A DNA stretch of 47,897 nucleotides, filler included, from Catajapyx aquilonaris (GCA_000934665.2; 2 parts of 2 records of this genome joined end to end with filler, not necessarily neighbours in it), one strand, 5' to 3'; numbered from the whole stretch's first letter, positions 1 to 23,891 are shown. Numbers and translations: made by a program. Notes: generated by a model not told the origin, from the letters alone.

Positions 1-1033
1 CATTTATCGGTGTCCACCACGTCCCACCTCGTCTGCCAAGCATCTAGAGCCGCTCTGAAGTGTCGCGATCGAACCGAGGAGGGACACTCCGGCAGGAGTG
101 TGGGTGCTGGAAGCCGGGGTCGGGCTGGGGCTGCGTCCCGCGGCCGTGGGGGGGCCAGCCGGCGCCCCTACCAGAAGAAGAAGACCCGGTCATCACCTGC
201 CCTGGTGATGACTGTGGTGGAGGCGGGGGAGCCTCCAACCTATCCCAAGATGCTGCTGGCCACCTCTCGGGACATCTGCCAGGGGGTGGACCTGCACACC
301 ACTCCCATTCCATTTGGCAGGAGGTCGGCAGGTACGAGTTACCTGCCGGCTTCTGAGGAGGAGGAAGCTGCAGAGGGGAGCCCCATCCTCTTGGCTCCGG
401 TCGACCCGGGGGAGCCGCTAGTCAGTACCTCTCCCCTGCTGTATACCTCCGGGGACGACGGGACCGCCAGCGGGTGGAGAAGAAGAGACTGGAGCAGGTG
501 GCTAGGGAGGAGGCACTACGGCTTGAAAGGGTGGAGGCGTCGGCTGGCGTCTCCGCCGAAGCGGCCATATCCATCTTGGCGGACTCCATCGCCCGCCTGC
601 AGTGGCAGGAGGCATCGCCAAAGGTTCCACAGGGACAAGTGACGCAGGAGGCACAGGACATGGACGAATAGTGCCGGATTTTCTATGATATTGTGGAATT
701 CCCCTCACCCCCGCCATATCTGTTGAATTGTTACTTTTTCTTTTCCCATACTTTTACGCACACCTTTCACTTGTTTTTTCCCACTCACCAGGGGGTTGGG
801 CTGACCCAGTTCTTCCCCCCCCCCCCCCCCCCCGGGGGGGGGGGGNCCCGTGGAAGAAGGAGCCCCTTGCTCCTTCCTTTTTTCCCCTCCCCTCTGCTGT
901 ATACACACTATTTCAAAAACAGTTGTACTCCAGCCCCTTTTGGGGACAGTTCAATAAATACCTGTGTGCTACGGAACCTACTGTGTCTCATTGAGTATAG
1001 CCGGTACTGACGACGAGCCAACGTCGTTACACA
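1..1033 (+). mobile_element. GC-rich ORF remnant followed by poly-C/poly-G tract and LTR-like 3' end (possible LTR-retroelement tail)
   Basis: GC-rich frames ending in a coiled-coil-like peptide (474-671), C/G homopolymers ~814-845, AATAAA 953-958, ends ...GTCGTTACACA at 1033. Same layout as 21435-22755. Confidence 0.35.
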
Positions 1034-1370
1034 ATGTCGAGCTCATCAAGCGATTGCATGTCATTTAGGAATGTTTAGGTTGTGGTTTTCCAATATCTGC
1101 GGATAGGTTTGCAACATACACAAATGAAACACGCGATTTATACTTGAAAGAATATCCCTGGTATGCAATGCCAGTGAGCGTTCACAAGGTGTTATTTCAC
1201 GGGAAGGACGTCATTGCCTCTTGTATTCTTCCGATAGGCCAGCTATCGGAAGAAGCACAAAAGGCCAGGAATAAAGACACTCGGAAATATCGGGAAGATC
1301 ACGAGGAAGACATCTCGTTTACACACCATCACAGACTTGGTCCACAGATCCGAAAATGGCAAGTTTGAGG
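1033..1370 (+). mobile_element. Transib (RAG1-related) transposase C-terminal fragment, decayed
   Basis: ELIKRLHVI*...ETRDLYLKEYPWYAMPVSVHKVLFHG...LPIGQLSEEAQKARNKD matches the Transib YPWYxMPxxVHKxLxHG and GQLSEE motifs. Confidence 0.85.
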
Positions 1371-1723
1371 AAGGCTCCAAAAACAAAGAGTGGGAAATTG
1401 ACACCTGGAATTTTACACTTGTTGGATGTACCTAGCCAAGAATGTGAAACACCAACTTCGGACAACAGCGACGAGTGTCACGTATCCTCCTAGATAAATT
1501 GTTGCTATTCATAATTAGCCATTATAAAGTCCAGGTAATCTTAATAGTAATTTTTATGACATCTTCTTTATAACCCCACCACTCCATTTCTTGGGGGTAG
1601 CCGAATAATTATGGGTTTGGGCAGTACAATAATGACTCAAATCACTCAATATTGTGTGTATATTGTGGATTCAAGAATTTTACCGCTGTGTAAGATTGAT
1701 TAATATTATTATTAACATTTCAG

Positions 1724-2400
1724 GTGGAGCTTGTGGAGGGCAGTCGCATTTATGTGACGAGGGCCCAAAAGGTCAACATCCAACAACTCACAGTCAGTGG
1801 GAGAAAATCGGCTGCTGGCATGATTAGAATAATTTTAAACATCTTGCACACGAAAGAAGACGGTCTAATGATCGACAAGGGCTTCCAGCTGAGGAGCTGG
1901 AAGCAATATACTGTGAGTTTAACAAATGAGATGGTGTAGTTACGAGAGCACTTAATTTTGTTGAGGCAGCATGAAGCTCATAACAAGTCATCACATGATG
2001 CAGTTAATTGTTCAACATGACAATTTTTCATCATGGATGGGAGGATCCTTTCAGAATATTAATTTGAATAGGAGTGAAAATTGTAAATTAAATCTTTGTC
2101 TACGTAAATATTGTTCCCTAAACCCATTGTGTGCCAAACAACAATGCTGTACACCATTGTGTACATGATCATCGTGGAATGTTACGGTCTTAATTTTCTA
2201 GGATGACGAGTCTAAAATTATTATGTTGACTACTGTTTGGATGGCCCATTAATATCAGTTAGTGAATTAGCAAGTTCACCAAACGTGTCCTTTTTTCCAG
2301 GCCTGGTGGAGAAGGAAGGATCGACTGGAACACAAAAACTGTCCAAATCAGATGTGATCAAAATTGTGAATGTGCGATGTGCTACTTGCAGAAGAGGTAG
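1724..2400 (+). pseudogene. BEN-domain-like fragment in two exons (1724-1912, 2301-~2398) with retained GT-AG intron
   Basis: Acceptor TTTCAG at 1718-1723; VELVEGSRIYV...IILNILHTKE, frameshift, NDRQGLPAEELEAIY; donor GTGAGT at 1913; acceptor TTTTTTCCAG at 2291-2300. The phase-1 join gives C-LVEKEG...KSDVIKIVNVRCATCRR, a BEN-like C-terminal helix. Confidence 0.55.
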
Positions 2401-2529
2401 CCTACAGTAAATTAGGCAGGGGTGGGACTAGGGACATCGCTATGGGGCCATTACATGATCACCTATGTGACATTTGTACGCGTTTTTGACCATAAATAAT
2501 TTTTAAATAAGTACTAAAACTAATTATTT

Positions 2530-3150
2530 TGACTGGCTGTTAAGTCACCCTGGCAAGGCAATCACTATTTATGAAGTAGCCGAACTTGCAGGATCTGCTT
2601 TTATTGCTTCTTTCTCAATGTCAAACATCCTGTCTGGTTTATCAAAGCCAGGAGTCTGGCCATTCAATATAAGGCTGCATTTCAACCATCAGATTTCATG
2701 GCAAAAGACACGTGTCTAGGACGAATAAAACTGAGTTACTTAGAGCATGGTCTTGGGTTGCATTTACTGCGAAGCAGCATATGTAACAGATCGCCAGGAT
2801 CCATCAATTGCTGTTGAGGTGGGCATCAGTGTTGCAAGTGGGTCGAATGACAATGACATTGACGATGTTTCTGACAGCTCCGTCAGAGTCACAGTTAGGT
2901 TTGCCACATTAGATATCTGGCGGCATAGCATCACCAGAAGATATTCGGCCATTCCCAAAGGCGCCACCACGAAAAATCTTGAGCGGTCGTGGACGTAAAA
3001 AGGGGAGGAGTCGAATTCTTACTGACACCCCCGAAAAAAACATGATTGCCGCTGAAGTCGAAGCAAAAGAACCGAAGAAACGAATAGGCTTAGGCCTACC
3101 TGCAAGACAAGGTCGAAGAAAGAAATTGTTTGCTGCAGAAAAGAAAAGAA
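2530..3150 (+). mobile_element. pogo-family (DDE_1) transposase C-terminal fragment, frameshifted
   Basis: DWLLSHPGKAITI/YEVAELAGSAF...SNILSG...GVWPFN; AYVTDR; SPEDIRPFPKAPPRK...RKKGRSRILTDTPEK. Confidence 0.8.
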
Positions 3151-3339
3151 ACTGGAATTTAATGAACGAGAGGAGAGTTCATTTGATGAAAGGTCAAGTT
3201 TCCATGTGGAAGACAGCCTATCCGACATCCAAGATGGTCTAATGGAGGAAGACGACATTCCTGATATGCCTATGCCTATTGCTGTTGGCGCTTTGGTCCT
3301 CGTAAAATTTAGTGGAAAAAAAAACACAATTCGGCGCAT

Positions 3340-4395
3340 GTATTGTTTTGTGCGAGTCGTTTCATTCTTGATGACGGTGAAGGGCAAAAATGCTGTAGTG
3401 GCTCATGTGTCCACCATATCGGAGATATGTGACAGGAAAAATTTAGTGCGGGACAAAAAAAGGAAAATCTATTTTGAAAGAGAGGGAATATTTGTGCGAC
3501 CTGTTGAGGTAAAGTTAAGTAACAGTGGTAGAAAGGTATATGTTGTACCGTTACTAGCAATGCTGGAAAATTTGTTGCAAAGCCATGAAATGTTTTAACC
3601 ATGTTTCGAGAACCATCAGCCACTCGAGAAGGTGTCATGATGGATTTTGTAGACGGCCATAGATTTTCAACACATCCTGTGGCACAAAAGCACCGGCTCA
3701 CAATAATACAACAGCTGAAGTACTTGAAATCATGACGTGGACGTGGCCAATCCTTTGGGCATGAAGCGAGGTGGAAAGGACAAGTTGTGCTTTTTTTATA
3801 AAGTCTTTTTCAACATCCCACCGTCTTTGTGCCACATTAATTTGTTGGGTACAAGGGAATCAAGTGAGCTCAAATTAACTGAATGTAAAAGAGAAATGCT
3901 GCATGATTTTCTGGAACAGGTCAACAAATTATCCACGAGTGGGCTTGTCCTGAAAACATGTGAAGGGGAGGAACTTTTTTATGGCTGTCTTGTAGCATAT
4001 ACTGGAGATTCTTTGGCTTGCCACAATATTGCTGGCTTCAAGGAGTCCTTCAGTCCAGTTGTTGTAAGACCATGCAGATCGTGTCTGGCAAACTCAAGCG
4101 ATTATTCCAGGCTGTGCTACTATGGGCAGTGCATGTTGAGGAATGACGCGCAGACACAGGAGCAACTTCATGAAATTGACAAGTGTGTAAATTCCAAAGA
4201 CAAACAAAAGCTGTCTGGAGAGTTTGGCCTCAATGGCCCTTCAGTGTTAAGAGAGGTGCCATATTTTAAAACATTTGCTATATGATCCTATGCATATAGT
4301 GTTGGAAGGGTGCGGGCCAAGGAAAATGTCGTTATTTTTTAAAAAGGCAATTTCTGAACGGCATGTGTTCACCCGAAAGCAATTTAATGTTGTCC
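3340..4395 (+). mobile_element. Animal EnSpm/CACTA transposase central fragment, frameshifted
   Basis: VYVVPLLAMLENLL; DFVDG..FSTHP; DVDVANPLG; GDSLACHNIAGFKESFS..RPCRSC; YDPMHIVLEG. Confidence 0.85.
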
Positions 4396-4439
4396 ATGAC
4401 AGTTCCAACCCTCTCTCGGTTCATCCCATTCGCAATGTG

Positions 4440-4890
4440 AAAAGATATTCACGAATGTGCAGGTACCCAAATATAATTGGGCATTACAATAGGAATATGG
4501 GAGGGGTTGACAGAGTGACCAAAATTTGAGTCTGTACCGGGTATCCATTCGAGGTAAAAAAAAAAAAAAAGGTACATTCCGGTGCTGATGTACTGCATAG
4601 ATTTGGCAGAGCAAAATGCCAGAAACACAATGAAGGAACATCAGACCATTTAAAATTCAGCCGTCGGGTTGCACGTGCCCTATTGGAGACGTTTGGGAAG
4701 GGCAGAGCCTCCCGACGTGGCAGACCAAGCCGTCGTGAAGTAATAGACTCCAGATATGATGGCAGGGACCACCTTGTAGTGTCTCAAGACAACCAGACGA
4801 GATGCAGATTTTGCGTGGCAAAATCTGCAACTCGCTGCACCAAGTGTGACTGTGGCATTCATGTGAAATGCTTCGTGGCTTGGCATAGGA
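4440..4890 (+). mobile_element. piggyBac transposase C-terminal fragment including Cys-rich domain
   Basis: PNIIGHYNRNMGGVDR; SLYRVSIRGKK; RYDGRDHLV...RCRFC...TRCTKCDCGIHVKCFVAWH. Confidence 0.9.
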
Positions 4891-5299
4891 ACAGACCAGT
4901 GGGACAGAAGTGGCCGGGACACCACTATCCTGTTATTGACCACCCGTACGAGCGGCGGGCAGTTGCTAGAGAACGACTTCCAATAGCAGATTTGGTCTCC
5001 GGCAAAAAGGAAAGTGCAAGGGCCGGCAACCGTCACGCTTTTTGGCCTCTGACCGAACTCAAGGCCGTCGAATAATATATATCACGAAAATGCCATGTTG
5101 CCAGTCGGATGTTGTCATTATAGAGGTACTCAGTCGCATTGACTACGGAGGGTTTTAAAGGCGTAACTGTTGGTCAGTTTAATGCGGGGCGTGGAACTGA
5201 AAGTTTCGCCGCTACCCCCATGAATTCTTATACGCCATTATTCCTCGGAAAGCTTGCTCATAGGTAGAATGTTGACTACTACATACACATAGGCAGTGC

Positions 5300-5840
5300 A
5301 GGGACATTATATCGACCACATAAAATGGCAGGTGACATTGACAGATTCAAAAAGGACATAACAATCATGAGAAATATAAATGGTACGTTACGCCTTTGCA
5401 TGAGACACGACACGTTATTGAATGTGATTCAGGTTTGCGAAAATCAAAATTTGAATATAGAAGTGGAACTGCAAAAAATGTTTGCAGTGGTCCTGCCGAA
5501 ATCATCAAGGACTCGTGTTTCTGTTGCATCACAGAGCTCATCGCAGTTACTCAGTATCTGGCTGGTCACTGCATGGCGTTCCGAGGACACAGGGTAAAAG
5601 GTGCAACGAACAAGGGTAACTTCATGGACCTTGTTATCCTCATGAGTCGCTCTTCGCCAGCTTTGGCATCACACCTCGCCAAGATTGAAGCCAAGGGAAA
5701 GAAGGCAACTTCCTTTGTTACGTGGGATAGGCAGAACCAACTTATTGAAAGTGTAGCTAGTTGTATCTGCAAAGAAATTTCTGATGCTGGTGTTTTCAGC
5801 ATCTCTTCGGATGCAAGTTTTGACGCCTCTAAGAGGGAGA
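5300..5840 (+). mobile_element. hAT transposase N-terminal/central fragment (ZMYM1/DUF4371-like)
   Basis: YLAGHCMAFRGH...NKGNFMDLV...LASHL...QNQLIE...FSISSDASFDASKRE (first catalytic Asp region). Confidence 0.85.
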
Positions 5841-5844
5841 TGAA

Positions 5845-6225
5845 GGTGATGCTCCCCAGCAAATATTTTGCCAAGAAAAAACCTTGACAGCTTCTAGCGA
5901 TAAGCCTTGCGGAGGTTTAACCCTGGCAAGTGAGCAATTTTTCCAATTTCTGACAAGTATGGAGGGAAAATTTTCGATCCTCATTCCAGATTTAGCCCAT
6001 AAGGTCAGGGTTGTGGAAAATTTGCAGGCTCATTTGCCTAAGGATACACAGGGATAATTTTCATTGTGTTCTGAGAATCCCTTGGCACAACTACTGCACC
6101 TTTTCTGCAGGTTAAGAGTAATGTGGTGGGTAAGACTCAAAAACAGAGACTTGCAGGATGGTGGGAAAAAGAACAGGGAAATGAAGGATGGTGGCAGAAA
6201 TAGGAAAATGATGAAATTGTTGTAA
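5845..6225 (+). mobile_element. P-element/THAP9-type transposase extreme C-terminus
   Basis: GGLTLASEQFFQFLTSMEGKF...LLHLFCRLRVMWWVRLKNRDL...RNRKMMKLL*; one internal stop. Confidence 0.65.
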
Positions 6226-6355
6226 ATTATATATTTCATATCTACCATGTCATCCCATGAATCACTCTGGTTTCGTCGAATATTGGTAATAAATAATTAC
6301 ATCTGCGCATAATTTTGCATCAATAATAGCATTAATCCCTGGTAATACGGTAGTG

Positions 6356-6587
6356 GTTTCTCCTTCGATGGGATTACGTAATATTATGGTAATTAAGCAT
6401 TAATGTATTCGTTTTTATATGATCTTATAAAATGTAATTTACAATAATACGTCGCCAACTGTCCTCCGTAATTCTGTAGGATCTGGCCGGTTGATGTCCG
6501 TGTCGCCAGACATGTGTTTCTCCTTTGATGGGATTACGTAATGTTATGGTAATTAAGCATTAATGTATTCATTTTATATGATCTTAT
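6356..6587. repeat. Direct repeat of ~72 bp (two copies, ~6356-6428 and ~6516-6587)
   Basis: GTTTCTCCTT(C/T)GATGGGATTACGTAAT(A/G)TTATGGTAATTAAGCATTAATGTATTC...TATATGATCTTAT occurs twice. Confidence 0.9.
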
Positions 6588-6674
6588 CAAGCTACATGCA
6601 TGAACAGCTACATAGAAATATTTAAAATTCTTGGGTAGGCAAAATATTGCGCTTACAATATGATTTCTTTGCAC

Positions 6675-7165
6675 CAGCATTATTTTGCGGGTGTTGCGGC
6701 AGTGCAACGGGGCAAACAATCGTCCAACTACACAGCAGTTTCTCTACTCATCAAGGCTGCTCTCAGTGTACAACCTCGCTTTGGAAACTGCCCTACAACG
6801 GGTGTCAGTGCTGGGCTGCGTGTTTTGTCTACACTGAGCGACATTGCATGCTCGACCAACTCTGGCAAGTCATCTGTCCAATTGAGCATAGATGAAGAAC
6901 TGGACAACTGGTTAAAAGGTTGTGGTCAGAAAGAGCAGGACAACATGCCAGAGTCTACAGTAAATGACCATGATTACAACGAGGCGCAGTGGGGTGACGC
7001 AATTATATATCACACGACAGGTTATGTAATCCGCAAGGTACAACATGTCTTCCATTGTGAAGCATGCCACAAAGCACTGATTGCCTCAGAGGGGGAGAAA
7101 TGTATAGATAATATATCAGTACTGCTTGACACCCGTAACAGGGGGTCATTAATTAAGCCCTCACA
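6675..7165 (+). mobile_element. P-element/THAP9-type transposase C-terminal fragment
   Basis: VLRQCNGANNRPTTQQFLYSSRLLSVYNL..GNC; DAIIYHTTGYVIRKV..HCEAC...RNRGSLIKPS. Confidence 0.8.
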
Positions 7166-7329
7166 ATGTGAGTGGCCCTGCAGCACAAGTTAATCCCTCT
7201 TCTCAAGCATCTACACCTCCATTTACACCTATAGTTCGGCACAATTCAGAATGATGTAGAGAGAATAGTTTTCAAAGTAGGACCTTATCAGTTGAAACTT
7301 GCATATTTAAAAACACTGGAACCACCAGG

Positions 7330-8038
7330 AAACTTATTACCAGATGAATTGGCAATGTTGAGGAAGGAGGTGAATGATTAGTGTCTTTTTTGAAAGAAAA
7401 GCTTGTGGCTGTAAACATTGGCATACCTCAAGATTTTCCCGAGAAAATACGAGTAAAAAAGCTACTTGCAGATGGATCACTGGAAGAGGTGAATGCGACT
7501 CCAGAGGAACTTTGGAAACTTGACGTTTTCTGTGTTCTCCTGGACAGTGTCATTTGGGAACCTAAAGGAGCGTTACAAGGCTGTTCATGCGATATATGAG
7601 ATGTTCAGTTTCTTATGGAATTATTCCGATTTGTCCAAAGAAGAACTGGAGCAGGAAGTGAAAAGATGGGCGAAAATTTATCTGATGTTTCTGCAGAGGA
7701 CATGGATCTTGAAATGGACCATCTCAAGACTATCCAACCAGCGAACTTTAAGAGTGACTTAACTGTTGAACTCAATTACTCACCAGAATCTTACCAATCT
7801 GTTCCCAAATATTTTCATAGCATTGCGCATATTTTGTACATTACCAGTTACTGTTGCTGAAGCAGAAAGATCGTTTAGCTTGTTGGCGCGTGTGAAGAAC
7901 GTGTTTCGCGCAACAATGACCCAAGATAGACTGTCAAGCCTGGGGACCTTAGCTTTGGAAAGCAGTCTTGCGTGCAAGTTAAATTTTGAAGAAATAGACT
8001 GTTTTGCTAAAGTTAAGGCAAGAAATGCTCCATTATAG
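7330..8038 (+). mobile_element. hAT transposase C-terminal fragment with hATC dimerisation domain
   Basis: LFPNIFIALRIFCTLPVTVAEAERSFSLLARVKNVFRATMTQDRLSSLGTLALE; upstream frameshifted segments. Confidence 0.9.
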
Positions 8039-8104: not shown

Positions 8105-8467
8105 TGTGAGAATGTCCGAGTGTCCTTCCTAGTGCAAGCTGATGCAGCATTCTTGAAACAATACGTCAGACCCGTTCTAAGTACATGCAGCTGCAGAGCA
8201 TTCCACCACTACGCGGTGTAGGTGGCCAGCCTTGAATAACGCGGAGTTCAGCACTACTCCTTCCGGGTAGTTTCCTTATAAATAGGGGCGTTTTGCCCCA
8301 AGATAGCGGAGAGAGACGCGCGGAGACCACCGAAGACCACCAGAGACCACGGAGAAGACCGAGAGAATCCAGAGAGACGACAGACACTTCCCAGGGCACC
8401 ACAGAGTAGGGAAAAGACACACGTTTCTCCCATAAATCAGCTCAGACGTTGATTCCCGCACACCACA
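8105..8467 (+). mobile_element. Possible solo LTR
   Basis: TGT...ACA ends, TATAAATA at ~8277 followed by a purine-rich GAGA tract; only a 3-bp AGT flank match, no clear 4-6 bp TSD. Confidence 0.4.
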
Positions 8468-8477
8468 AGTAAGAGTA

Positions 8478-10382
8478 CACTCTTAGTCCTGTGCCTTCTC
8501 GTCCTTCACTTCAGAAGGCACATACAAAAAAAGAGTGTTTTTAGAAGGCACACCCCATTGCATTGCTGCATGAGCTCCAGAAGGCACGAGTCATCCTTTG
8601 TGGCTGACTCAGAAGGCACTAGCCGCTGTGCCTTCTCCAAGGATTCAGGTGTACATTCTGAAATGATCGCGGCATGCCTAGTGCCTTCTGGAGCAGTCCA
8701 AGTCCTTGTAGCAATTCGAATCTGGCCGTGTGCTAGGCCTAGTTGTGGCATGGCGGTTTCATTGGTGATATGCTCATAAATCGTTTATTAATGCTTCAGG
8801 TGAAAAAAAAGTCAACAACTTCAAGACTTGACCATGGGTTTTGACAGACAGAGGTTCCTGCGAGGAGCCTGCCAGGAGTGTGAGTGCACTGACTTTGATG
8901 TACCCACAGAAGGGAACCAATGTGACTACTGTGGTTATCGCCCAATTGACCATTCCACCGCAGTACAAGGTACAGTATGATAATGGCACCATAAAGTTAT
9001 GCACTTTAACAATATTGTGAAAATATTTTTTAAACATGGAGACCACAGTTTGCTCTTTTGTGTTAGCTGCACTGCATTCACTGGAAACTGTTTCCTTTTA
9101 GACATGCGAAGAGACTCTCAAATTGATGTAGGAAGGGCTGTAGCCATTTCCCTAAATGTAGGCGCCACTGGAGATGTCCCACAATCCAGAATCTCTATGG
9201 AATATGAAGGTAAATAGCTTTTTGCATATCATATAAACTGGCAGTTGCAGAGCTAACCAAGGTTCACTTTTCCCCAACCAAGATATGAAGCAGAATCAAA
9301 AGTTTTCATGAAGAACCTAAGGCCAAGCGCAAATCATGCAATGTCGGTGCGATGTTGCTATGTAGGAGATAGTGTACGTACTAAAAGATTTTAAAGATGG
9401 AGTGAGGATGCAGTCCCATCCTGTTGCAATAGAACACCCTCAAAACACCATTGCCATGTTACTGTACTGTGATGACGTAGAACTTGCCAATGCACTAGGT
9501 ATGAAAAGAGGGACTCTCTGTACATTACATCTCCTTTCTAAATATCCCACCAACGCATAGGTCCAAGTTATCAAACATTTTTCTGTTAGGAGTTGGTCAC
9601 TCACAAGTTTGTGAAGTTACCTCGGAAACACCATGTATAACAAGTAGTTCCATTGTGTATAGGAGTGTATGGCTATGTATACATGTATTGTTTGATCAAA
9701 CGGCTGTTTGAAGTAACTTATGAACTATTCTACATTTCCAGGGAGGAATACCAGATGGTGTCACGCCAGGGCCACAGCTTTTTGGGCAAGACCATCAAAA
9801 AGTTATATATGGCAACACTGATGGACATCCAACATCCATTCAGCTCAGCATAGATGAGACTCTGAACAGGGGGGCTATCATGTGCCTTTGCACCTACTAT
9901 ATTTTAGATATTTCCTACCCGTCAGCATTTGGCCAGTCCCTTGGCTTCCTGCAGAACATTTTTCTGCCAAGGGACAAAACGTTTGTACGAGGGCACATGT
10001 CCAGCAATTTGAAGGAAGTTTTGGACATGCTGCACCCGCGGAAAAAGAAAAAGAAGCAGCGAAGCGCCAGCCAGACTCATGTCAGCACCAACAAAATAAT
10101 GTTAACCTCAGACCTGTTGTATTATAGTATATGGATTTTGTATGGGGGGACTTCTTTAGGGAAATTTGTTTAGTAAATGTGTCTGGCATCTCTGTACACC
10201 AATTTATTCTTCCCCACACCCTTGACCCAATAGCCACATCAGTGATCTAAAATTGCATCTGAGGGGAGGGAGTTATAAATATTAGAATATGAAGCAAGGG
10301 GTGACAGAAAAAGGTGGGTTGTGGGTGGGAGGGGAGGCTCCATGAATGTGCCTTCTCCGGAGAGGGCACAGGACTAAGAGTG
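8478..10382 (+). mobile_element. Internally deleted EnSpm/CACTA element with both TIRs
   Basis: 22-bp TIR CACTCTTAGTCCTGTGCC(T/C)TCT at 8478-8499 and 10361-10382. GTGCCTTCT/AGAAGGCAC subterminal repeats at 8491, 8513, 8543, 8579, 8611, 8628, 8681 and 10348. Internal transposase piece DFKDG..SHP..LLYCDDVELANALG (9372-9610) and second-ORF piece TYYILDISYP..LGFLQNIF (9880-9970). Confidence 0.85.
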
Positions 10383-10490: not shown

Positions 10491-11205
10491 GTGAATCCAA
10501 AAACACATCAGATGCGGGAAAAACGAGCACTTGGATCCACTGTCATGAACCAGTTCAAACTCATCAGGAACATGAGCGTCCTACATAAGTTTGAGAAGAA
10601 GATGAACTCTGTGAACATGGCTGTTCTGAGCATGTTTAAGGAGAAAGCAGCAGCAGGTGCGACTATTCACGACCGCACTTTGAGGATCTGGGCTATGGGC
10701 TAGAAGAGGGAGATCGATCCGGAGAACAAGCTCACCTTTAAGGCCTCTCCTTCATGGGTGTGCAGGTTCAAGAAACGGAACAATATTAAGCATCGGGCGG
10801 TCACACACAGGGTCAGCAGGAAGTGGAGAGACAAAGAAGCTAATCTCCAGCAACTGGCTGATGGATTCGTCGAACAGACGCGGAACCTGATCATCACAGA
10901 TGAATACGCACCAGGACAGGTGCTGAATGCAGATCAGGGTCGGTTTGAGAAGGAGATGCACGTCGGACATCGAACACTTCGGACGAGGGGAACAAAAGTC
11001 GTCCGTCAAGTCGTAGGATCAGTAGCTGCCGCAACACACAGTTATATGATCATGCCAGTTGTCTCTGTGGACGGTGAGATCTTTCGACCAATGCATGTTC
11101 TGATTTCCGAATTTAGTGGCGAATTCCCGGCATCGAAGCCAGCAGATCCTTCGAACATCAGATCGTTTGCCGGGAAAACAGCGAACATGAGCAAAAAGGC
11201 GAGAG
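10491..11205 (+). mobile_element. pogo/Tc5-like transposase fragment (CENP-B-type HTH plus start of DDE)
   Basis: IHDRTLRIWA*..FKASPSWVCRFKKRNNI; VLNADQGRFEKEMH.GHRTL..GTKVV; ATHSYMIMPVVSVDG. Confidence 0.85.
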
Positions 11206-11254
11206 AGAGGCTCTTGGTGCTGCCAATTATTACCATCATATTATTATAACCGAC

Positions 11255-11315
11255 CGAAGCAGTGGTAGCGGAGGGGATATGGTATCCGATTGCTAATCGG
11301 GAGGTCCTGGGTTCG
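11255..11315 (+). mobile_element. tRNA-derived (SINE head) fragment, truncated in the T-arm
   Basis: A-box-like TAGCGGAGGGG, anticodon-like stem-loop CCGA-TTGCTAA-TCGG, then GGTCCTGGGTTCG. Confidence 0.55.
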
Positions 11316-11319
11316 TTCG

Positions 11320-11442
11320 CCCTTTCCGGATGAAATTTGGCTCAAGATCTTCTCCCACCTCGACCAACGCGACCTCCTGCACTGCGTAGCCGGCGTCTCC
11401 AAGCAGTGGAACAGGTTGGCGCACGACGCGTCCTCCACATAG
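11320..11442 (+). pseudogene. F-box motif fragment
   Basis: PFPDEIWLKIFSHLDQRDLLHCVAGVSKQWNRLAHD, a full F-box consensus; no ATG, stop at 11440-11442. Confidence 0.85.
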
Positions 11443-11540
11443 TCAAATTGGAGTCGGCGGCCTAACAAAAACAAACTCGGTGATTGGTGACGTAGGTTCG
11501 CACCCCGGGGGCCGCTGACCCTGACCGTGGTTTCCCATCT

Positions 11541-11740
11541 GAATGTCATAAATATTCTGAGAGTTATATGAAGCACAAAATGGCAGAATTGTTTGGTGAT
11601 AAAGTAATATTTACAAATCTGAGAGGACAAGTTAATGTTGCAACATTTCCAGCAAGTGCGTCCGCAATAATTCTTCAGCAATACCACAATATTTTCCAAA
11701 AGGAGATAATGTTGAGGCAGAAAAGAAGCGAATCATTGAA
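11541..11740 (+). mobile_element. Academ-type transposase fragment
   Basis: YSESYMKHKMAELFGDKVIFTNLRGQVNVATF..ASAII..YH...EAEKKRIIE; family assignment from recalled motifs. Confidence 0.55.
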
Positions 11741-11934: not shown

Positions 11935-12925
11935 TATATACATATGAGGAGAGGTACCTAACACTTGAGTTACTGAACCGCCGCGTCCACAGCTTTAACT
12001 ACGGCTTCACAGAGAAGAAAAACAAACCATTCTCTGCGAATTCATCTGCGAATTTTATGGAAAAGTCATCGCGCAATCTTGCTGACAATAACTTAAACAG
12101 AGAGCCCAACAGTCCTGGTGCTTATTCAGGGTATTGCCATTTCTTCTTGCTGACAAAGTACCATCAGGCGACCAATACTGGCAGCTCCTTTTATTGCTGC
12201 TGAGAATTTCTGAAATAGTTTATGCACCAGCTGTAACCGATGTTGTACTTGGAACACTTGATCAAAGAACACCACACTCTTTTCCGGCGACTTTTCCCTC
12301 AGAAGTAGTTAATCAACAAGCATTACCATTTGCTTCACTATCCTAGCAGCATAAAAAAGTGTGGTCCTATGATTGATCAATGGTGCATGAGATACGAGGG
12401 CAAACACAACTTCTTTAAAGTGTTTTCAGGCATAGTGTGCAATTTTAAGAACATTTCAAAAACACTGGCACATAAGCACCAAAAACAGCTTTGCGCATCC
12501 TGGAGCTTAGGAAAAAAGTGGAACAATGTGGAATTCAGGCCTACGAACTATGTAGTTGGACAAAGTGGATTTCGGCAAGAACTGGTAGCAGAGGGTCTCA
12601 GAGATGATGATGACCCAGATTGTTTGTTTCCATGGCACTAAGATACAGAAAAGGCACTTTTGTATGCACAAAGGGCAAGTCCAATGAAAGTGGACTTCCC
12701 TGCTTTGCAAAAATTGTGGACATTGCAATTTATCAACAAGCAGAAGCTTTCTTGATTGTGAAACCATATTGCACAGAATACTTGTATGAGAAGTTGCATG
12801 CATACGCAATAGTATCCAGCCAACTGCCTCTAGTGGCCAAGATAGCAACTGATTTGGCTCATCACATTGCACTTGACATTTGGCATGCATATAAAGACAG
12901 CACAGACTACATGACTGCCACTTGA
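11935..12925 (+). mobile_element. Animal EnSpm/CACTA transposase C-terminal fragment
   Basis: FNYGFTEKKNKP; WCLFRVLPFLLADKVP..YWQLLLLL; KHYHLLHYP..IKKCGP..WCMRYEGKHNFFK..CNFKNISKTLAHKHQ. Confidence 0.9.
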
Positions 12926-12959: not shown

Positions 12960-13201
12960 CACAGTATTACCTCCAGAATTTGATTGGAACATTTGCTGTA
13001 TTTGCCAAAAAGGTGGCGGCAAATTGACATGTCCAATGAAACAATCCTGTGGAAGCTAGACGAAGCCTTGGATATGCATCACTTGCTGCAAATCTGGAAC
13101 AATTGAAGTACTTCAATTACAAGCTGTCATGTGGAAGGGACGTCTGCGTGCTTGATGATGGTGACGTAATTCTTGCATGTTTTTTGAAGCATGCAGCTAA
13201 G
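12960..13201 (+). mobile_element. Academ-type transposase N-terminal fragment
   Basis: FDWNICCICQK; GYASLAANLEQL; LDDGDVILACFLKHAAK. Confidence 0.5.
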
Positions 13202-13240
13202 AATGTCTGAAGAACCATTCTTGGAATTACTAACCAAAGT

Positions 13241-13460
13241 GGAACAAGGAGGAGGAAACACTAATGATGGCAGTATGCCAGACGCTTTTTTGACGACCCC
13301 TTCACTTTCTTCAGAAATTACTGGCATAGACGCGAAAGTGATTCGCAGGATGAGGGTCCTTTTGCAGGCAGTGTCAAGTGCCAAGCCCATTGACACGAGC
13401 GCATTCAAGAAGTATTCTCTGGAAACGGCAGAGCTGCTGGTAAGCTATTACCCGTGGTTG
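13241..13460 (+). mobile_element. Transib transposase fragment (second, divergent family)
   Basis: QGGGNTNDG...PSLSSEITGIDAKVIRRMRVLLQAVSS..ID..AFKKYSLETAELLVSYYPW. Confidence 0.85.
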
Positions 13461-16209: not shown

Positions 16210-16332
16210 TACATCTCCACAGGAGCTGCTGGATTTAGGCTCAACCCATGCCGGGACATTTTCAACCCTAGCAGCACAAGTTCGCAAGTCATTTGCAGAA
16301 TGTTTTTCATCCGCAGTTGGTGAGGTATCATG

Positions 16333-17229: not shown

Positions 17230-17515
17230 ATGAACTTGCTCTTGTCAAATCCAAAGATGCTGATTATACAGTAGAATGGCTCTATCACTGCATAATAATA
17301 GAAGCCTATTTGAAACGACTGGAATTCACTTACACAAATACTCTTGAGGGAGATGCCAACCTGATGCCAACACATTAGATTATCATTACAAACCATGCAA
17401 TACGACCTTTAGAAGATTATTAGGTGCCAGGAAACCAGAAAACATTAATCTTGTGTTGTTGCCTACGTGTATTAATGTTAACCATTGGGTGTTGCTAGCA
17501 GGTCATGTGAAGGGA
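17230..17515 (+). pseudogene. Ulp1/C48 SUMO-protease-like fragment
   Basis: EWLYHC/IIEAYLKRL (WLxDxIIxAY-like); NLVLLPTCINVNHWVLL (catalytic His motif). Confidence 0.6.
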
Positions 17516-18009
17516 GATATGACCATCTTGGATGTTAACATACTACTGTCAGTAAGTAACAAAAATAAAGCTAGGCCCAGGCGGAGAAGGCGGGAAAGGG
17601 CGTCTCTGCTTCGACACGGAGGAAGAAAAACACAATGACGGAAAAATTCAGGCTCTCTCTGACTCCCTATGAAAGCGAGGGACAATTCTTTTTGGACTGT
17701 TGATACACTATGCAACAGCAGAGATAACTGGATAGCTACTTTTATTTTCTACTATCCGTAAAAATGTTCTTGCAGGTATTCCCGAACTCCCACCGAATAA
17801 GAGAGACACACAGTTTGCCTCTATGCCGATACAGGCAATACATCAAATGTATTCGTTTTTTTGCACTCGCAGTGGGGTACATTAGTTCTGTAAACAGCAG
17901 TAAACTACTGTATGAAAACTACTGAAAATGCATATAAGGGAAGTCTCCCTGTATATACCGTAAGGTGCTCAGAGATAATAAACATCTATCTGTCACTTTA
18001 TCAAGAGAG

Positions 18010-18562
18010 TCAGTAACAACCTCCTTGTTCACGACTACGTGATCAATGGCAATATGGCGTCATGGACACACACTTCCAGTCTCTACTAGCTGGATCAGCG
18101 AGGAAGCGTCCGAGAAGTTCCCAAGCTGACTGACAGGCACGTCAGATCATGTCAGCTACAGAAGATGTCAAGTTGGCGACGCAAGAGTTCAGCAATTCGG
18201 TGTCAAGCGCGCTGATGACACTGTGGCGAACTTTTGCAAGGAGATGAACGACCTGTTCGACATCCTGAATAGCAAGCCACTGTATGACAGCAATCCGTAC
18301 TGTTGCGCTCTGTCGGATGACAGTCCTGAATTGGAGGCTTTGTTGGAATCGAAGCTCACTTGGGTGTCAAGGTGGGCCTTGGCGGACAAAGCGACTCCGC
18401 CTCCATGCGTCAAGGACCTCCAACTGACAATTTCAGCCGTGCTGCACCTTCATCGTGCACTGCGGATGGAGGGCGTGTCAGCATACACCCTGACAGCACG
18501 CCTGAATCAGGGCCACCTGGAGAACCTGTTCTCCTTCGTCAAGAGGCACGGTGGACACAACT
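18010..18562 (+). mobile_element. P-element/THAP9-type transposase catalytic fragment
   Basis: NNLL...WTH..LY*LD..R.VPKLTDRHV..QKM/VKLATQEFSNSVSSAL; FCKEMNDLFDILNS; TARLNQGHLENLFSFVKRHGGHN. Confidence 0.9.
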
Positions 18563-19394
18563 GGGCCAATAGCTCCAGTATATCGCTAGCTATTGGCTGG
18601 GAATGTACAAGTACTGTCGTTGCAAGTGATGAGAAGATGAGGTACCTGGAAGGCTTTCTCCGCAAAATATCAAGAAAAGTGCAATACACATCAGTCGCAG
18701 TACGGGACTATTGGACACAACTTGAATCCCAGCGTCATGCAGTTCAGGAGGATTGTACAGCAGATTACTGCCATGAGCCTGACGGTGCCTCCTTGAAAAT
18801 TCTCCTATTGCAAGTGACAATGCATGTGTCATTTGCCAAGCTCCATATGTGGCTGTGGGACATTCACCACGCTTCCTGACAGTGCACCGATTGATGCATA
18901 TTGCAGGGCCAAACTGTGGCTGCCGAAAGAGAGTCGCCGCCGCTGCAGCTTACATTTGTCTGGTGGTGTCTTCCTGGATGATCAGACTTTCTGACAAGTG
19001 CTTTTTAGTGGTGATGACACTTGTTTATCTCTGGAGGATGCCACCTTCAAGCCAGATGGACGCACATTTAGCAGCTCTGATGAAGGGTATATCCCAGCTG
19101 CATTTACATCAATTTTTGACTGTCCATCAAATCTGACTAATTAATTACATAGACTGATGGCTTTTTTTTTTCTTTCATAGTGGCTTGGTTTAGTTGAGTT
19201 TACTTGGGTAAATTAATGGCCTATTTGATTGTTCATGTTTAATGTAACTTTAATGTGACAATACATTTGTTCTGAAATTAAATTCCAGTGATTATTTTTC
19301 CATTAACACAACTTAAAGGAGCTACATGTGACGGTGAGTGCATCCCGATCAGGAGGAAAGACGGTTAGTATGGCAACACGAAGAAATCATCTAC

Positions 19395-19900
19395 TACAAC
19401 ACACTTTGACGCTGACGGCCAAACTGACAAGGACTACCTGACCTTGACAGGTCTCACCAAGGACCAAGTTGAGACTGTTCTCTCAACCCTACATGGTCAG
19501 ATAGATAATATACACCAGCACGTTCTGCCCGCACAACATTGGCATATTCCTAATGAGGCTGCGCATGGCTTTAACCCAAGAACAACTGGCCACATTGTCC
19601 AAAACTGCTCTGATGAATGAGTTTGTCCCACGGCATTCGGGGCTGAAAGTTGCTACAATGAACGTGGTCATGAAGCAACACACATCCATTACGGCCCCAA
19701 ACTTGGTTTGCTGGTGGTAGGTCAGACATTGGCATTTTCGTACTAGGTAGCACATATACTGTATAATAGATATTATGTATATAGAGAAATCCTCAGATTA
19801 TTCTTCTGCACGCCACACTTACTCCATGCACAAACACAGGTGTCTCGTGAAGCCCATGATGGTCACCACGACAACAGGTTACATTGTGGATGTGTTTGGT
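19395..19900 (+). mobile_element. ISL2EU/Harbinger-clade transposase fragment
   Basis: DYLTLTGLTKDQ; RLRMALTQEQLATL; ALMNEFVPRH; YIEKSSDYSSARHTYSMHKHRCLVKPMMVTTTTGYIVDVFG. Confidence 0.75.
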
Positions 19901-21434
19901 ATGAGCATCATTATTCAAAGACTCTGACCTCCCAGGGTTTCCCAAGGAGGCAGAAGGCCCCGGACAATTTAAGCTTTTGCGTTGGAAGAAATTTGCACTC
20001 TTGCAAAGTTTTGATTGAACAACCTTTGGCCAACAGCAGTTGTATCTCCTAACAATTCATGAAATAATAAATGAAAAGTTTGGAAAGAATTTCATCTTTA
20101 CCTCTTACATGCTTCAGAAGAATTGAAAAATTACTAAAAATATATATAAACTTTCAGCAGTGCTTAGCAGTATTGCATATTTTTAAAAAAAATGGTCTGA
20201 GTGGAGGTCCCGTAGAATGTTTCTTGAAAAATACAATATATTCACGATGAAGAAATTAGTGCCATGGCCATAACCTTCACTTTGCCCTATCTATCTCATG
20301 TGTGGTCTGAAATGTTTCGACTCTTCCAGAAAGATGGCCATGGGGTTTTATTTGCTCCTGGGAGTCCAGTTTACCAAGAACTTGCATTTATGTATATTCC
20401 AATCACATTCCATCATCTTTTTAGAATTTGACAACATAAAGAAAGAGGTTAAAGAACATGAAAATATTGACACACCAGAAAGTGACGATGATCTCGGCCA
20501 ATCACTTCCTGCTCGTGATGCCAGCCCATCATGTTCTGCTGAGGGTGACATGGAATAATTTGGAGCCTTGTTAACCAGGTGCAATGATGTCCGCGAGTTT
20601 TTCTCCCGCCAACAGTGTGCCAGGTGCGGGTGATTTGGGCGCGTGACTCACTACGCTTTCCTCCCACCTTAGACTTCGTGACACGTGCTCGATTTTTCAT
20701 GAGGGGGTGCTGATTAGGCGAGGTGGGGGCGATGGTGGGAGGGGGGAGAGAGAGATAAACACTTGTGAATGAAAGGCAGATAGTAGCTGCATTTTGCCTT
20801 AAATCTAAGTTGCAAATGCAAGGTCCTTCCCTCTTTTAAACAAGCCATATGGGGCTTGGCGCGTCTTCATTGTTAGCGTGAAAGCTGACATGTGTAATTA
20901 TTCAGAGCCGTTTTAAATAAAGGCGCCGGGCGACACATCACTGTAAACTGGACAGCAATATTTTTATTGATATGTTCCTATAAAATGTCACTATATATTA
21001 CATAAAATTGCATCAAGCCCATAAAAGTATTGAGGTCTGCAGCATCTTTCCTCAATAAAATTAAGGCCATTTCACAAAAAAAATGTCGCGCGGCAAACGG
21101 CGCGCGTTGCGGCATATTTCTTATTGCCAATAATTAATAACAATTGGCGGGGCACGCGTTTGCCGCTTGCCGCTGCCGCAAAATCTTTTTGTGAAATGGC
21201 CCTTATGCAACTTGAGTTTATTGAAATTTTCAGTAAAATTAATGTTCCCGTGGAGACGGAATAGAGAAAGCACAATTATTGGGTAGCACGGCAGTGCGTC
21301 CGCCAAGTCTCCTTCCACCCTCCCTCCGCCCTCCTCCCTCCACCCGCACTGCCCTACCTTTACACGAACCCCCTAGTTACTCTACACACGAGCCCCTTGT
21401 AACTCGGGACTGGGTAAGACTGGAGGTCTGAGAT

Positions 21435-22755
21435 TTGCATGGCTTGGTCTCACAGCGGGACGGACCCCATTTAAAAAAAAATCGTGAAATTTGGACAAAC
21501 TGTCTCCGGTTTATAAGGTACCCCCCCGTGTGTTGGCCCCCCTGTGTGTTGGCCCCCCCGCCGAGGTACCAGCAGGAAGTGGACAGGGGCTCGGCTGGTG
21601 CACACATCTGGCACGTGGACCGCTGCTGGGCACCGTGGCCGATGCGGTATACTCCTGAAGCCCCGAGGGTGCTGCTGCCTTCGGAGGTCCCTGCAATTGG
21701 GTCCACCCGGCCGCTGCCGACGCGACGCCTCGCTGGGGATGGATCCCCCCGCCCGGCCACAACGAGGAGGGCGCCAAAAAAAAACCCTCCGGTGGCGCCT
21801 GTGGCCCCGCCTGAAGACGTCGCGGAGATGGTGCCTAGCCCGGCGGAGGACGTGCTGCTGGCCAAGGTGGCCGCACTGGAGAGGGAGGTCGCCATGCTAC
21901 GAGCGGTAATGGTCAACGGTCTGCCCCAAACCGGCGTGGTCGCCGCGGCACCTCAGGACAACGACGCGGCTGGTGATGAAGCAGCCGCAGTGAACGGGCC
22001 TGAGGAGGCCAACCTGGTAGCTGTTGCTGATGGTGGCTCTCCGGCAGAGACGGGTGGGGCTGCTATGGACCTGCGCGAAGCAGATGAGCCGGGACTGTAG
22101 CCACCGTGCAATTTTCCTTCCCGTTTTAACCCCCCCCCCCCTTTTTTTTGTTTTGTCCTTTTTACCGGGCGTTTTGCCAGTGGTGGGGTGGGTTTTAGTG
22201 GGAAAGTTGTTGCCTNGTTTGGGTGCCCCCCCCCCCCCCATTTTTTGGTATGTGTGCATTTTTTTCTTCTTTCTTCTTCTTTTTGCTCTCAATGTTGGTG
22301 TTTGCCAGGGAGGGTCCCCCACCCTTTTGGGACCTCTTCCTGTGGAATTTGTTGGCTTCCCCCCCTCCCCGTTGGGGGTTTGCCACCCAGTATTGGTATT
22401 ATTTGGTATGCAGATTTAGAATGATGTTCATCCATAGTTTGCTTTTGGTAGTGGGTTCAAGTTCGCTCCCCTTAGTCGCGAGCTGGCAGGGGGAGTGATG
22501 CCACGGGTTTGTAAGAGTGTTGAATTGGCCGCCCCCCTCCATGGGACACCTGGCAACCCTGGTGGGTGTTCCCGAGGGGGGGGAGAAGGGTAGAAAAAGA
22601 CAGTGAGAGCAGCTTGAGCGATAGAGAGCAGCGGATGCGAAGCCAGGAGCTCCCCAGTTTGTGTCGGAGGCGTTTCCGTGAGTGTATTTATCCTGATAGA
22701 AATAAAAGGTGTTTTGATGGTGACTCGTCTTGTTACTGAAGGTAGACGGTAACCA
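21435..22755 (+). mobile_element. GC-rich ORF (21435-22100), homopolymer-rich UTR, PPT and LTR-like end
   Basis: 221-aa Pro/Ala-rich ORF with coiled coil LAKVAALEREVAMLRA; AGGGGGAG at 22488-22495 then TGATGCC; AATAAA at 22701; ends GGTAACCA at 22755. Confidence 0.4.
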
Positions 22756-23377
22756 TTGTTGTAGAAGAAGTTTAAAAAATAATGAAGAACCTGAGAGGCA
22801 CCCACCACCAGGATGTAACAGATACCGGTGCAAAAGCCAAGTTGGACATGATGACAGTGTTTAAGGACGTATCTCAGCAGTTATAACCGACTCCACAAAA
22901 CAGAGCATTGAAATATTAGCAGGAGGAAGGAAAGCTGAGGTCAAGAAGAAAGGAGGAAATCAGAGGAGGAAATCAGAGGCGGAAACTATTGCTCACATTA
23001 GTAAGTTTCCCTGCCCAATCACCATCTCGACCCAGGCAGCCAGGCTACACAACATCCTGTAGAAAGAAGCAGCATGACAAGCCTCCATGTCTTCATCAGT
23101 CATTCCAGTTCTTACTAATCAAGTAAGAAGCAACTTGCTCTACTCTCTCCCTGCAGCTTCTGGGCTAGATTCGGTTGATATCCATCTCCCCCACCACCTG
23201 GGATGTGTGCCCAGTCTGCTGCTCCTGATACAGCATTAGTTGAAAGTCACCAGTCAAGGAGTCCTCACACTGTTATACCCAGGCGAAGAAAAGGTAATAC
23301 ATGGGAGAGGACCTCTTCAGGGTCAATTATTTTACCAGTCTTCAACTGAACAACATACATCTTCAGGTCTCATCTCC

Positions 23378-23695
23378 AGTTATCCAAGGGTGTGTGGTAA
23401 TTGAGACAGGTAGTATCAGAATGTGAATTCTTTCAGGAAGCACCTAAAAGATAAATGTACACAAAATTGTGTCTCTGTGTATCCGAAATTGTGCAGGAGT
23501 TGTGGCAAGCAGTACTCAAATAAGGAAAATAATTGCTGCCGTAATAGCAATTACGGCCATCAGCCCAACAGTAGTTCTGGTAATAATATACCTAGGCCAA
23601 ATAGTGTTGCCTCCATATATCCAAGGCTGTGCGAGAGGTGTGGTAAGACGTACCAGAATAAGAGTTCATATAGTAACCATATGGAAAAAAAACAA
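23378..23695 (+). pseudogene. Three degenerate C2H2/C2HC zinc-finger-like repeats
   Basis: YPRVCGN*DR*YQNVNSFRKHLKDKC; YPKLCRSCGKQYSNKEN; YPRLCERCGKTYQNKSSYSNHMEKK. Confidence 0.6.
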
Positions 23696-23891
23696 TACAC
23701 TAATATGCAACCAATCACTGCCCTCAGCTTGATTACAATATCTCTCCGAATATTTCTGAAAGCCCACCCTCCACTATTAGTCAGAATGCTACAGAGATGG
23801 CAGTGCATGAAAATGAGGTGGTGACACACCCGAGGGAACAAGTTGATGATGTCCAGATTCTGAGGTTTGATTCATTTGATGACTTTATGAA

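Follow-up and report, generated by a model that had tools for sequence, protein, structure and literature searches.

A one-sided graveyard of DNA-transposon fragments in Catajapyx aquilonaris, possibly a unistrand piRNA-cluster-like locus

The window (the whole stretch of Catajapyx aquilonaris DNA that was analyzed, 47,897 nt including filler between its two parts) contains, from its start to about 20 kb, the low-copy remains of DNA transposons, old and broken copies that belong to five or more superfamilies, along with a SINE and an F-box scrap. Searches with Pfam, PDB and tblastn identified 11 robust coding fragments (E ≤ 1e-4), all on the plus strand: two of Transib, three of an unnamed ~750-aa family, two of hAT, two P/THAP9-like, one pogo and one F-box. 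Five further, weak matches are likewise on the plus strand, so that 16 of 16 detectable pieces agree; the first-pass annotation had claimed one strand for all of its more than 20 pieces. The features, in order, are:

1081..1308 (ORF 1069-1365), plus: Transib fragment A, C-terminal part (PDB 6pqn, HzTransib aa 358-434, E = 1.6e-17)
3323..4394, plus: unnamed-family piece 1 (P0001 aa 75-441; tblastn 1.8e-60)
4413..4517, plus: weak piggyBac candidate (piggyBat 9c0f, E = 0.24)
5489..5848 (ORF 5342-5884), plus: hAT-associated DUF4371 (Pfam 8.7e-6)
6682..7163, plus: P/THAP9-like fragment 1 (TNP-like_RNaseH_C 7.5e-5 in ORF 6664-6834, then a weak THAP9_C match, 0.086)
7793..7963 (ORF 7763-8035), plus: hAT C-terminal Dimer_Tnp_hAT (Pfam 1.7e-9; read-through 4e-8)
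8126..8212 (ORF 8081-8218), plus: weak SWIM zinc-finger remnant (Pfam 0.0044)
9378..9609, plus: unnamed-family piece 2 (P0001 aa 184-264; tblastn 1.9e-24)
10683..11246 (ORF 10704-11246), plus: pogo/Tc5-type piece (HTH_Tnp_Tc5 9.4e-6; read-through 6.9e-6)
11253..11560, plus: very high-copy tRNA-derived SINE (read depth ~28000; B-box-like sequence at loose ends)
11326-11430 (ORF 11269-11439), plus: F-box (F-box-like 1e-11)
12249..12536, plus: unnamed-family piece 3 (P0001 aa 524-617; tblastn, best 3.4e-9)
13199..13460 (ORF 13188-13541), plus: Transib fragment B (HzTransib aa 308-385; 6pqn, E = 3.3e-14) and a 47-nt segment
15990..16217, no strand: high-copy MITE-like insert (43-nt inverted ends; read depth ~13700)
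18196..18558 (ORF 18130-18876), plus: P-element fragment 2 (aa 424-543; 6p5a 6.7e-7, TNP-like_GBD 0.0012)
19547..19897, plus: weak Harbinger/PIF candidate (HTH_Tnp_4 0.16, DDE_Tnp_4 0.067)
21601..22100, no strand: CpG-island-like stretch (GC 0.69, CpG o/e ~0.9), the only one in the first half of the window
23630..23689 (ORF 23414-23821), plus: weak C2H2 remnant outside the polarised block (zf-C2H2_4 0.0045)

The unnamed-family pieces were located with six homologues of ORF 3728-4282, run by tblastn against both strands; the family is transposon-like and lacks a Pfam domain. Piece 1 is the largest in the block and carries six in-frame stops in 315 codons and a frameshift. The piggyBac-like piece follows its end after a gap of ~20 nt and shares an open frame with it, and is itself followed by a possible Cys-rich tail, recognised by eye, reaching ~4900. 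The 47-nt segment, which forms an in-frame fusion with Transib fragment B, has a second copy at 13847-13893 (98% identity, 648 nt apart), and 3' of the same fragment lie GTACGT and an intron-like stretch, GTAAGT...TTTTCTTAG. The pogo/Tc5-type piece comprises the end of HTH_Tnp_Tc5 and then an open frame up to the SINE. The SINE is split at 11316-11494 by the F-box-coding fragment of ~180 nt, which has the 6-nt duplication GGTTCG on either side and lacks terminal repeats. The two weak matches of the Harbinger/PIF candidate are adjacent and ordered as expected for this transposase, and were not recovered by read-through Pfam at E ≤ 0.1.

Several of the pieces may not be independent. The DUF4371 and C-terminal hAT pieces share a reading frame, and thus possibly derive from the same decayed copy, with P/THAP9-like fragment 1 sitting between them; unnamed-family pieces 1 and 3 could also be a single copy, while piece 2 is a separate one because its protein range overlaps that of piece 1. 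Treating each pair as one copy leaves ~9 independent pieces and a two-sided p of ~0.004, in place of the 2e-6 calculated earlier on the assumption of 20 independent pieces, of which 9-11 are supported. The overlapping protein ranges (Transib A with B, unnamed-family piece 1 with 2), together with the several unrelated superfamilies, nonetheless point to repeated independent arrivals.

No piece is intact, in agreement with the first reading of the sequence. The longest stop-free frame in the block is 249 aa, and with this length and the stops in the largest piece an intact or domesticated transposase gene was not identified. The robust pieces cover 3230 nt, and the recognisable share of the 20-kb block is ~16%, so the described back-to-back arrangement is not borne out; the count of more than 20 pieces was not confirmed, with 11 robust and five weak ones found. 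The focus on transposase-coding sequence may be an effect of ascertainment, because protein similarity recognises only coding remnants. Among the groups named previously, Transib, hAT, P, pogo, F-box and SINE were recovered, and Academ, mariner, ISL2EU, BEN and LTR tails were not found with any of the tools used. The proposed MULE is reduced to the weak SWIM match and piggyBac to its one weak match, and for Ulp1 neither the PDB search nor read-through Pfam gave support. No further family came from read-through Pfam on six short, broken stretches, the PDB sequence search returned nothing for 17348-17635, 4530-5072 and 10704-11246, and a word-index protein search found no match for the P piece or for ORF 9724-10170.

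Lacking on the minus strand is any credible transposon fragment (Pfam on both strands of 1-24000, PDB and tblastn). The Pfam scan took all 356 stop-to-stop ORFs of at least 40 aa from both strands of 1-24000, for which ~3.6 matches at E < 0.01 are expected by chance; eight plus-strand ORFs matched at this threshold. Two minus-strand ORFs did so at E 0.005-0.01, both to prokaryotic-type families (MC6/DUF4145 and GlnE). Transposase-associated families at E ≤ 1 in ORFs of at least 55 aa were found in 8 of 107 plus-strand ORFs vs 0 of 111 on the minus strand (Fisher p = 0.003). Reverse transcriptase (RT), integrase, gag and env domains were not identified on either strand of 1-24000, even in the E ≤ 1 scan, nor was a Rep/helicase domain (Pfam, same range). 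Host exons were not detected by Pfam on the minus strand anywhere in the window. The best minus-strand candidate, ORF 16365-16805 (147 aa, ATG start), was rejected as coding because its sole matches among 1.84 billion representatives are two "proteins" that are both translated tandem repeats.

The polarity is also apparent without annotation. Across 1-19000, purines exceed 0.5 on the plus strand in 29 of 31 windows of 600 nt, and in 23 of 31 the plus strand carries the longest open frame (p = 0.011); the polarity spans unannotated sequence too and breaks off abruptly near 19 kb. Neither measure is biased in 19001-23891 (purine > 0.5 in 5 of 8 windows; longest frame 4 plus vs 4 minus) or from 23992 to the end (17 of 36; 17 plus vs 19 minus), and none of 231 ORFs in the second half of the window has a credible Pfam domain. 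The polarised block thus runs from the start of the window, with its left end beyond it, to ~19-20 kb, and falls short of the 1..23891 given originally. CpG o/e is 0.61 in the block vs 0.85 elsewhere in the window. The CpG-island-like stretch lies just to the right of the block, where, speculatively, a leftward (minus-strand) transcript might begin. Rfam and tRNA scans gave no match. A tandem or segmental duplication was considered as the origin of the block and rejected because, on self-comparison, the first half proved nearly free of internal similarity. Repeat-spacer or cassette architecture is likewise absent: no k-mer of at least 12 nt outside low-complexity sequence occurs three times, no repeat family of at least 25 nt flanks the pieces (self-comparison), and no motif recurs at their junctions. 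The block differs in this from CRISPR- or integron-like arrays, as no short motif recurs between its units.

Unistrand piRNA clusters are recognised at the sequence level by co-oriented, decayed transposon fragments; in such clusters a long single-stranded precursor with a discrete promoter at one end is the source of abundant small RNAs of 24-32 nt with a 1U bias, which derive from one strand and are antisense to transposons. Flamenco-like loci conserve their position in related species as their content changes. Our best reading of the block is that a unit with minus-strand transcription has retained insertions according to their orientation, i.e., that it is a unistrand piRNA-cluster-like locus, although we hold this tentatively and would not put it as high as probable. 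Between 1 and ~19.9 kb lie remains of autonomous DNA-transposon copies whose sense strands are all on plus. The putative minus-strand unit would span the block and, like unistrand piRNA clusters, would keep only those insertions that run antisense to its transcript; its precursor would then be antisense to each of the families represented there. Minus-strand transcription, piRNA processing and a silencing role are predictions drawn from the sequence. The predominance of one orientation (16 plus vs 0 minus, and the polarity windows) is as expected of such a cluster, and the CpG-island-like stretch occurs where a minus-strand promoter would be. However, the numbers of AATAAA and TTTATT (14 v 9) give no sign of poly(A) signals having been cleared from the minus strand, and a p of ~0.004 is to be set against the very large scan from which the window was picked, where a chance run may turn up.

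The closest known systems are the flamenco (flam) and flam-like clusters of Drosophila, in which, according to PMC10643416, fragments lie opposite to cluster transcription. The block resembles them in its dense decayed fragments, near-uniform orientation, sharp boundary and candidate promoter-side CpG-rich end. That paper gives 227-1085 kb for flam-syntenic clusters and a strand bias driven exclusively by Gypsy LTR elements, whereas the block is visible over ~20 kb, is known from its sequence and carries DNA transposons without RT, integrase or gag; the enrichment of env-carrying Gypsy/LTR elements seen in flamenco was not found (no RT, integrase, gag or env match in Pfam). Mosquito core piRNA clusters, as summarized in bioRxiv 10.1101/2022.08.22.504762, are one-strand source loci with antisense endogenous viral elements, a layout like the one proposed for the block, with captured foreign fragments antisense to cluster transcription. 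In that summary their cargo is non-retroviral viral sequence and their expression is demonstrated, while the block holds transposase remnants.

We consider it unlikely, although deserving some weight, that the block is a neutral graveyard in which chance, non-independent pieces of single copies broken up by later insertions and a modest preference in nested insertion produced the shared orientation. The spacing of the two hAT pieces fits one copy with a P insert, which with the possible union of unnamed-family pieces 1 and 3 gives the ~9 independent pieces noted above, and very large scans surface extremes. Nested human transposable elements show a sense preference of up to ~2.6-fold for some pairs (PMC2836564, Table 3), and if each piece agreed with a probability of 0.69, the chance of 8-10 more pieces doing so would be 0.02-0.05. 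However, the bias reported in that table concerns mainly retroelements, the purine and open-frame polarity includes unannotated sequence and stops sharply, all five weak pieces agree, and no transposase-type match appears on the minus strand even at E ≤ 1. Sense-oriented transposons bring splice and poly(A) signals, and if the block sits in an extended intron or in an untranslated region of a minus-strand host gene, they could have been purged and the antisense ones left, with no role for small RNAs; this we regard as rather improbable. The low CpG o/e of the block would fit germline-methylated transcribed DNA, and an excess of one orientation, there antisense and attributed to transcription-linked purifying selection, is documented in mammals for intronic LINEs and LTR elements (PMC3088655). 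The analysis described in that source left out DNA transposons and its biases are partial, not all-or-none, whereas 16 of 16 pieces agree in the block, where no minus-strand host exon was detected; under a 2:1 bias, the probability of 8-10 more pieces agreeing is 0.02-0.04.

Some joints resemble repair or templated events more than transposition, which raises the possibility, again a rather poor one, of a composite made by Helitron-type capture, by RT template switching between transposon mRNAs or by replication-based templated insertion; the way the pieces were joined would then have produced the co-orientation as a side effect. The F-box scrap in the SINE, the twice-occurring 47-nt segment with its in-frame fusion to Transib, the abutting unnamed-family and piggyBac-like pieces, and the excess of A-runs over T-runs of at least 7 nt (15 vs 5 within the first half) all favor such an origin. 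Helitron/Pack-type arrays place short, unrelated coding scraps side by side in one orientation, and Helitrons are marked by a Rep/helicase gene or by 5' TC and 3' hairpin-CTRR termini; the scraps in the block are, unlike those of such arrays, mostly transposase and not host genes, and Rep/helicase and RT domains were not found by Pfam on either strand. Chimeric retrocopies are marked by intron-less pieces, 3' poly(A) and a target-site duplication. In the block poly(A) is inconsistent at piece ends (an A15 run at 4556-4570 is internal, and terminal poly(A) was not seen), and the intron-like stretch after Transib fragment B speaks for a DNA, not cDNA, source there. The same repair-like joints and the block-wide purine bias keep alive a further, very unlikely explanation: a directionally built archive in which scraps of transposase, occasionally of host genes, were captured in sense through RNA- or repair-templated events and would be read as guides from the opposite strand. 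Such an archive would parallel flamenco but be specific to DNA transposons, with orientation set by capture and not by selection after random insertion. Least credible of all is an assembly artefact, a short-read contig wrongly threaded through low-copy repeats. The assembly is gapped and short-read, with single Ns at homopolymer runs and N runs of 44 nt at 23892-23991, and independent contigs are at most ~2 kb, none spanning the stretch. However, misjoins would not bring orientations into agreement, reads cover 30 of 30 bins (15 of them at depth ≤ 60), and several junctions are bridged. Three runs each yielded error-free contigs containing the junctions between unnamed-family piece 1 and the piggyBac-like piece (4238-4999) and between unnamed-family piece 2, pogo and SINE (9326-11279); these runs are from one sample and are probably the window's own assembly data.

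If small-RNA data confirm the piRNA-cluster-like reading, this would be a unistrand source locus with oriented cut-and-paste DNA transposons of many superfamilies, in contrast to the Drosophila flam-like clusters studied so far, for which PMC10643416 describes an orientation bias for Gypsy retroelements only. The "antisense trap" logic would then reach beyond retrovirus-like elements, and the block would offer a compact locus for dating and testing DNA-transposon trapping. A silent locus would instead be a caution that ~10 co-oriented fragments can accumulate without function.

Read depth across the block is low and even except at the SINE and the MITE-like insert. A 2022 run of unspecified type contained high-copy repeats and only a few short, low-depth contigs. 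Reads join the SINE from 11314/5 to 11504-11517, and a related copy of the MITE-like insert is present at 40262-40421.

All stop-to-stop frames of 40 aa or more, taken from both strands of positions 1-24000 (356 ORFs, the strand not being chosen beforehand), were scanned against Pfam. With a cut-off of E<0.01, eight + strand ORFs match families (DUF4371, TNP-like RNase H C-terminal, hAT dimerisation, SWIM, Tc5 HTH, F-box-like, TNP-like GBD and C2H2). On the - strand, two ORFs match prokaryotic-type families only (E 0.005-0.01), which is chance level, since 356 queries would give about 3.6 such matches by accident at this cut-off. Transposase-associated families at E<=1 (ORFs of at least 55 aa) occur on 8 of 107 + strand ORFs versus 0 of 111 - strand ORFs (Fisher p=0.003). 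Reverse transcriptase, integrase, gag and Rep/helicase domains were not identified on either strand.

Six proteins of 663-869 aa are homologous to ORF 3728-4282(+), none with a Pfam domain; one cluster is present on 40 contigs. A tblastn search with the six against both window strands recovered three pieces of this unnamed transposon-like family, on the + strand only. These are listed with the matches from PDB sequence searches.

Transposase and transposon-like protein fragments in the first half of the window
1069-1365, + strand, Transib transposase fragment (PDB sequence search, 6pqn aa 358-434, E=1.6e-17)
3323-4394, + strand, unnamed family, piece 1 (tblastn, aa 75-441, 1.8e-60)
9378-9609, + strand, unnamed family, piece 2 (tblastn, aa 184-264, 1.9e-24)
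12249-12536, + strand, unnamed family, piece 3 (tblastn, aa 524-617, down to 3.4e-9)
13188-13541, + strand, second Transib fragment (PDB sequence search, 6pqn aa 308-385, 3.3e-14)
18130-18876, + strand, Drosophila P transposase match (PDB sequence search, 6p5a aa 424-543, 6.7e-7)

The Transib fragments are separate copies, since their protein ranges overlap while their sequences differ. In the one at 1069-1365(+), aligned to the solved Transib transposase, K replaces the reference E in the conserved SEEA-E-ARNK stretch, at what we take to be the third catalytic acidic residue; the change would fit an inactive copy.

The first-pass annotation described more than 20 back-to-back pieces, all on the + strand and none intact. 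Orientation and decay were borne out: all 11 robust pieces (E<=1e-4) are on the + strand, as are all five weaker ones (piggyBac-like, E 0.24; SWIM; HTH_Tnp_4/DDE_Tnp_4 neighbours, 0.16 and 0.067; THAP9_C; C2H2), no stop-free frame exceeds 249 aa, and the largest piece (unnamed family, 3323-4394) carries 6 stops in 315 codons plus a frameshift. The number and the packing were not confirmed, as the 11 robust pieces sum to 3230 nt. The labels Ulp1, Academ, mariner, ISL2EU, BEN and LTR tail found no support in the searches run, and that of piggyBac retains only its weak + strand match. The idea of a locus centred on transposase coding sequence is inseparable from recognisability, as coding remnants alone can be recognised.

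Strand polarity was also measured independently of annotation, in non-overlapping 600-nt windows. Of the 31 windows over 1-19000, 29 have a purine-rich + strand (mean 0.527), and in 23 the longest open frame lies on the + strand (p=0.011). Over 19001-23891 the corresponding counts are 5 of 8 and 4 versus 4, and in the second half (from 23992) 17 of 36 and 17 versus 19. Thus, the polarity belongs to an entire block up to ~19-20 kb, beyond the nameable 16%, and stops far short of 23891, where the annotation had put the boundary.

The best - strand candidate, beyond the antisense of + strand pieces, is ORF 16365-16805(-), of 147 aa with an ATG start. It was rejected as a coding gene: among 1.84 billion representative proteins its only two matches are long translated tandem repeats. 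These suggest a repeat family that makes satellite arrays in other genomes.

The block may be a - strand-transcribed, piRNA-cluster-like locus, the reading that we tentatively favour over the others from its sequence layout. A unistrand piRNA cluster transcribed leftward from ~22 kb would give this arrangement: many unrelated families that came in repeatedly and independently, one shared orientation, decay, and a sharp edge with a CpG-island-like stretch just past it (21601-22100, GC 0.69, o/e ~0.9). Strand bias is part of the definition of flam-like clusters (PMC10643416). In size, as far as is visible in the window, the block departs from them, and its content differs too: Gypsy elements alone carry the bias in Drosophila (PMC10643416), whereas here DNA transposons are oriented, with no retroelement protein signal.

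Chance or a modest mechanistic bias could also produce shared orientation. The hAT pieces (DUF4371 and the dimerisation domain) share one frame and could be one copy enclosing the P fragment, and unnamed-family pieces 1 and 3 could likewise be one copy, leaving ~9 independent robust pieces. The two-sided p for unanimity is then ~0.004, against 0.001 for 11 pieces and 3e-5 for all 16. Human nested insertions show orientation preferences of up to ~2.6-fold for some retroelement pairs (PMC2836564), and a partial intronic antisense bias is reported for LINEs and LTRs (PMC3088655). If each piece agreed with a chance of 0.67-0.69, the probability of 8-10 additional agreements would be 0.02-0.05. Chance is compatible with such odds because the window came from a very large scan; it is nevertheless the less likely reading, since polarity is block-wide and the weak pieces are unanimous. 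That the block is an intron of a - strand gene, a setting to which the reported antisense bias pertains, is more doubtful still.

We give a similarly low probability to a composite built by capture or template switching, although some joints look more like repair products than clean transposition. A 47-nt direct repeat (13199-13245 and 13847-13893, 98% identity, spacing 648 nt) joins in frame to the second Transib fragment at its first copy; the second continues in frame into another stretch, whose motif may be akin to a Harbinger N-terminus. This junction looks like the work of repair or template switching. An F-box-coding scrap of ~180 nt lies within a tRNA-derived SINE (11253-11560), flanked by a 6-nt GGTTCG duplication; SINE copies elsewhere in the reads lack it, joining 11314/5 straight to 11504-11517. 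The SINE is very abundant (summed contig depth ~28000). The end of unnamed-family piece 1 and the piggyBac-like piece are at most ~20 nt apart in one open frame. Downstream of the second Transib fragment, a GTACGT and a GTAAGT...TTTTCTTAG stretch resemble intron ends, which disfavours a purely cDNA origin for that fragment. Internal similarity in the first half is nearly nil, so this half is no duplicated unit, and no k-mer of at least 12 nt, low-complexity ones aside, occurs there three times; spacer-repeat or cassette-site structure is therefore absent.

Misassembly is very improbable. Four public runs from one sample contain 0.87-0.91 of sampled window words, and they cover 30 of 30 bins over 1000-20999 (summed depth <=60 in 15, 60-300 in 11, >900 in 4). 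Two of the four deepest bins match the SINE (~11253-11560) and a MITE-like insert (15990-16217). Three runs each have error-free contigs that span the junction between the unnamed family and the piggyBac-like piece (4238-4999), and also the stretch linking piece 2, pogo and the SINE (9326-11279). The runs are probably the assembly's source data, so this support means consistency rather than independent proof. Long C and G homopolymer runs at 815-846 and 22130-22239 (C19 then G12; C12; C14) adjoin single Ns (positions 846 and 22216). Both segments are GC-rich, carry long ORFs of low complexity on either strand, and are likely trouble spots for sequencing or assembly.

The results come from the window itself, from protein libraries and from a single set of public runs. 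The N runs at 23892-23991 divide the window into dissimilar halves: the first has a CpG observed/expected of 0.61 and nearly no tandem repeats, while the second has one of 0.85 and abounds in minisatellites and short inverted repeats. A Pfam scan of 231 second-half ORFs (at least 45 aa, both strands) identified no credible domain. The minisatellites (24000-47897) have periods of 10-137 nt (e.g., 26133-26935, 27967-28457, 29348-30274, 31433-31861, 42143-43077 and 45269-45815), and short inverted-repeat families are common to 33.0-33.6 kb, 38.6-38.85 kb and 47.1-47.5 kb. The MITE-like element at 15990-16217 has very high read depth (~13700), and its ends are inverted copies of 43 nt (88% complementary); a relative lies in the same orientation at 40262-40421.
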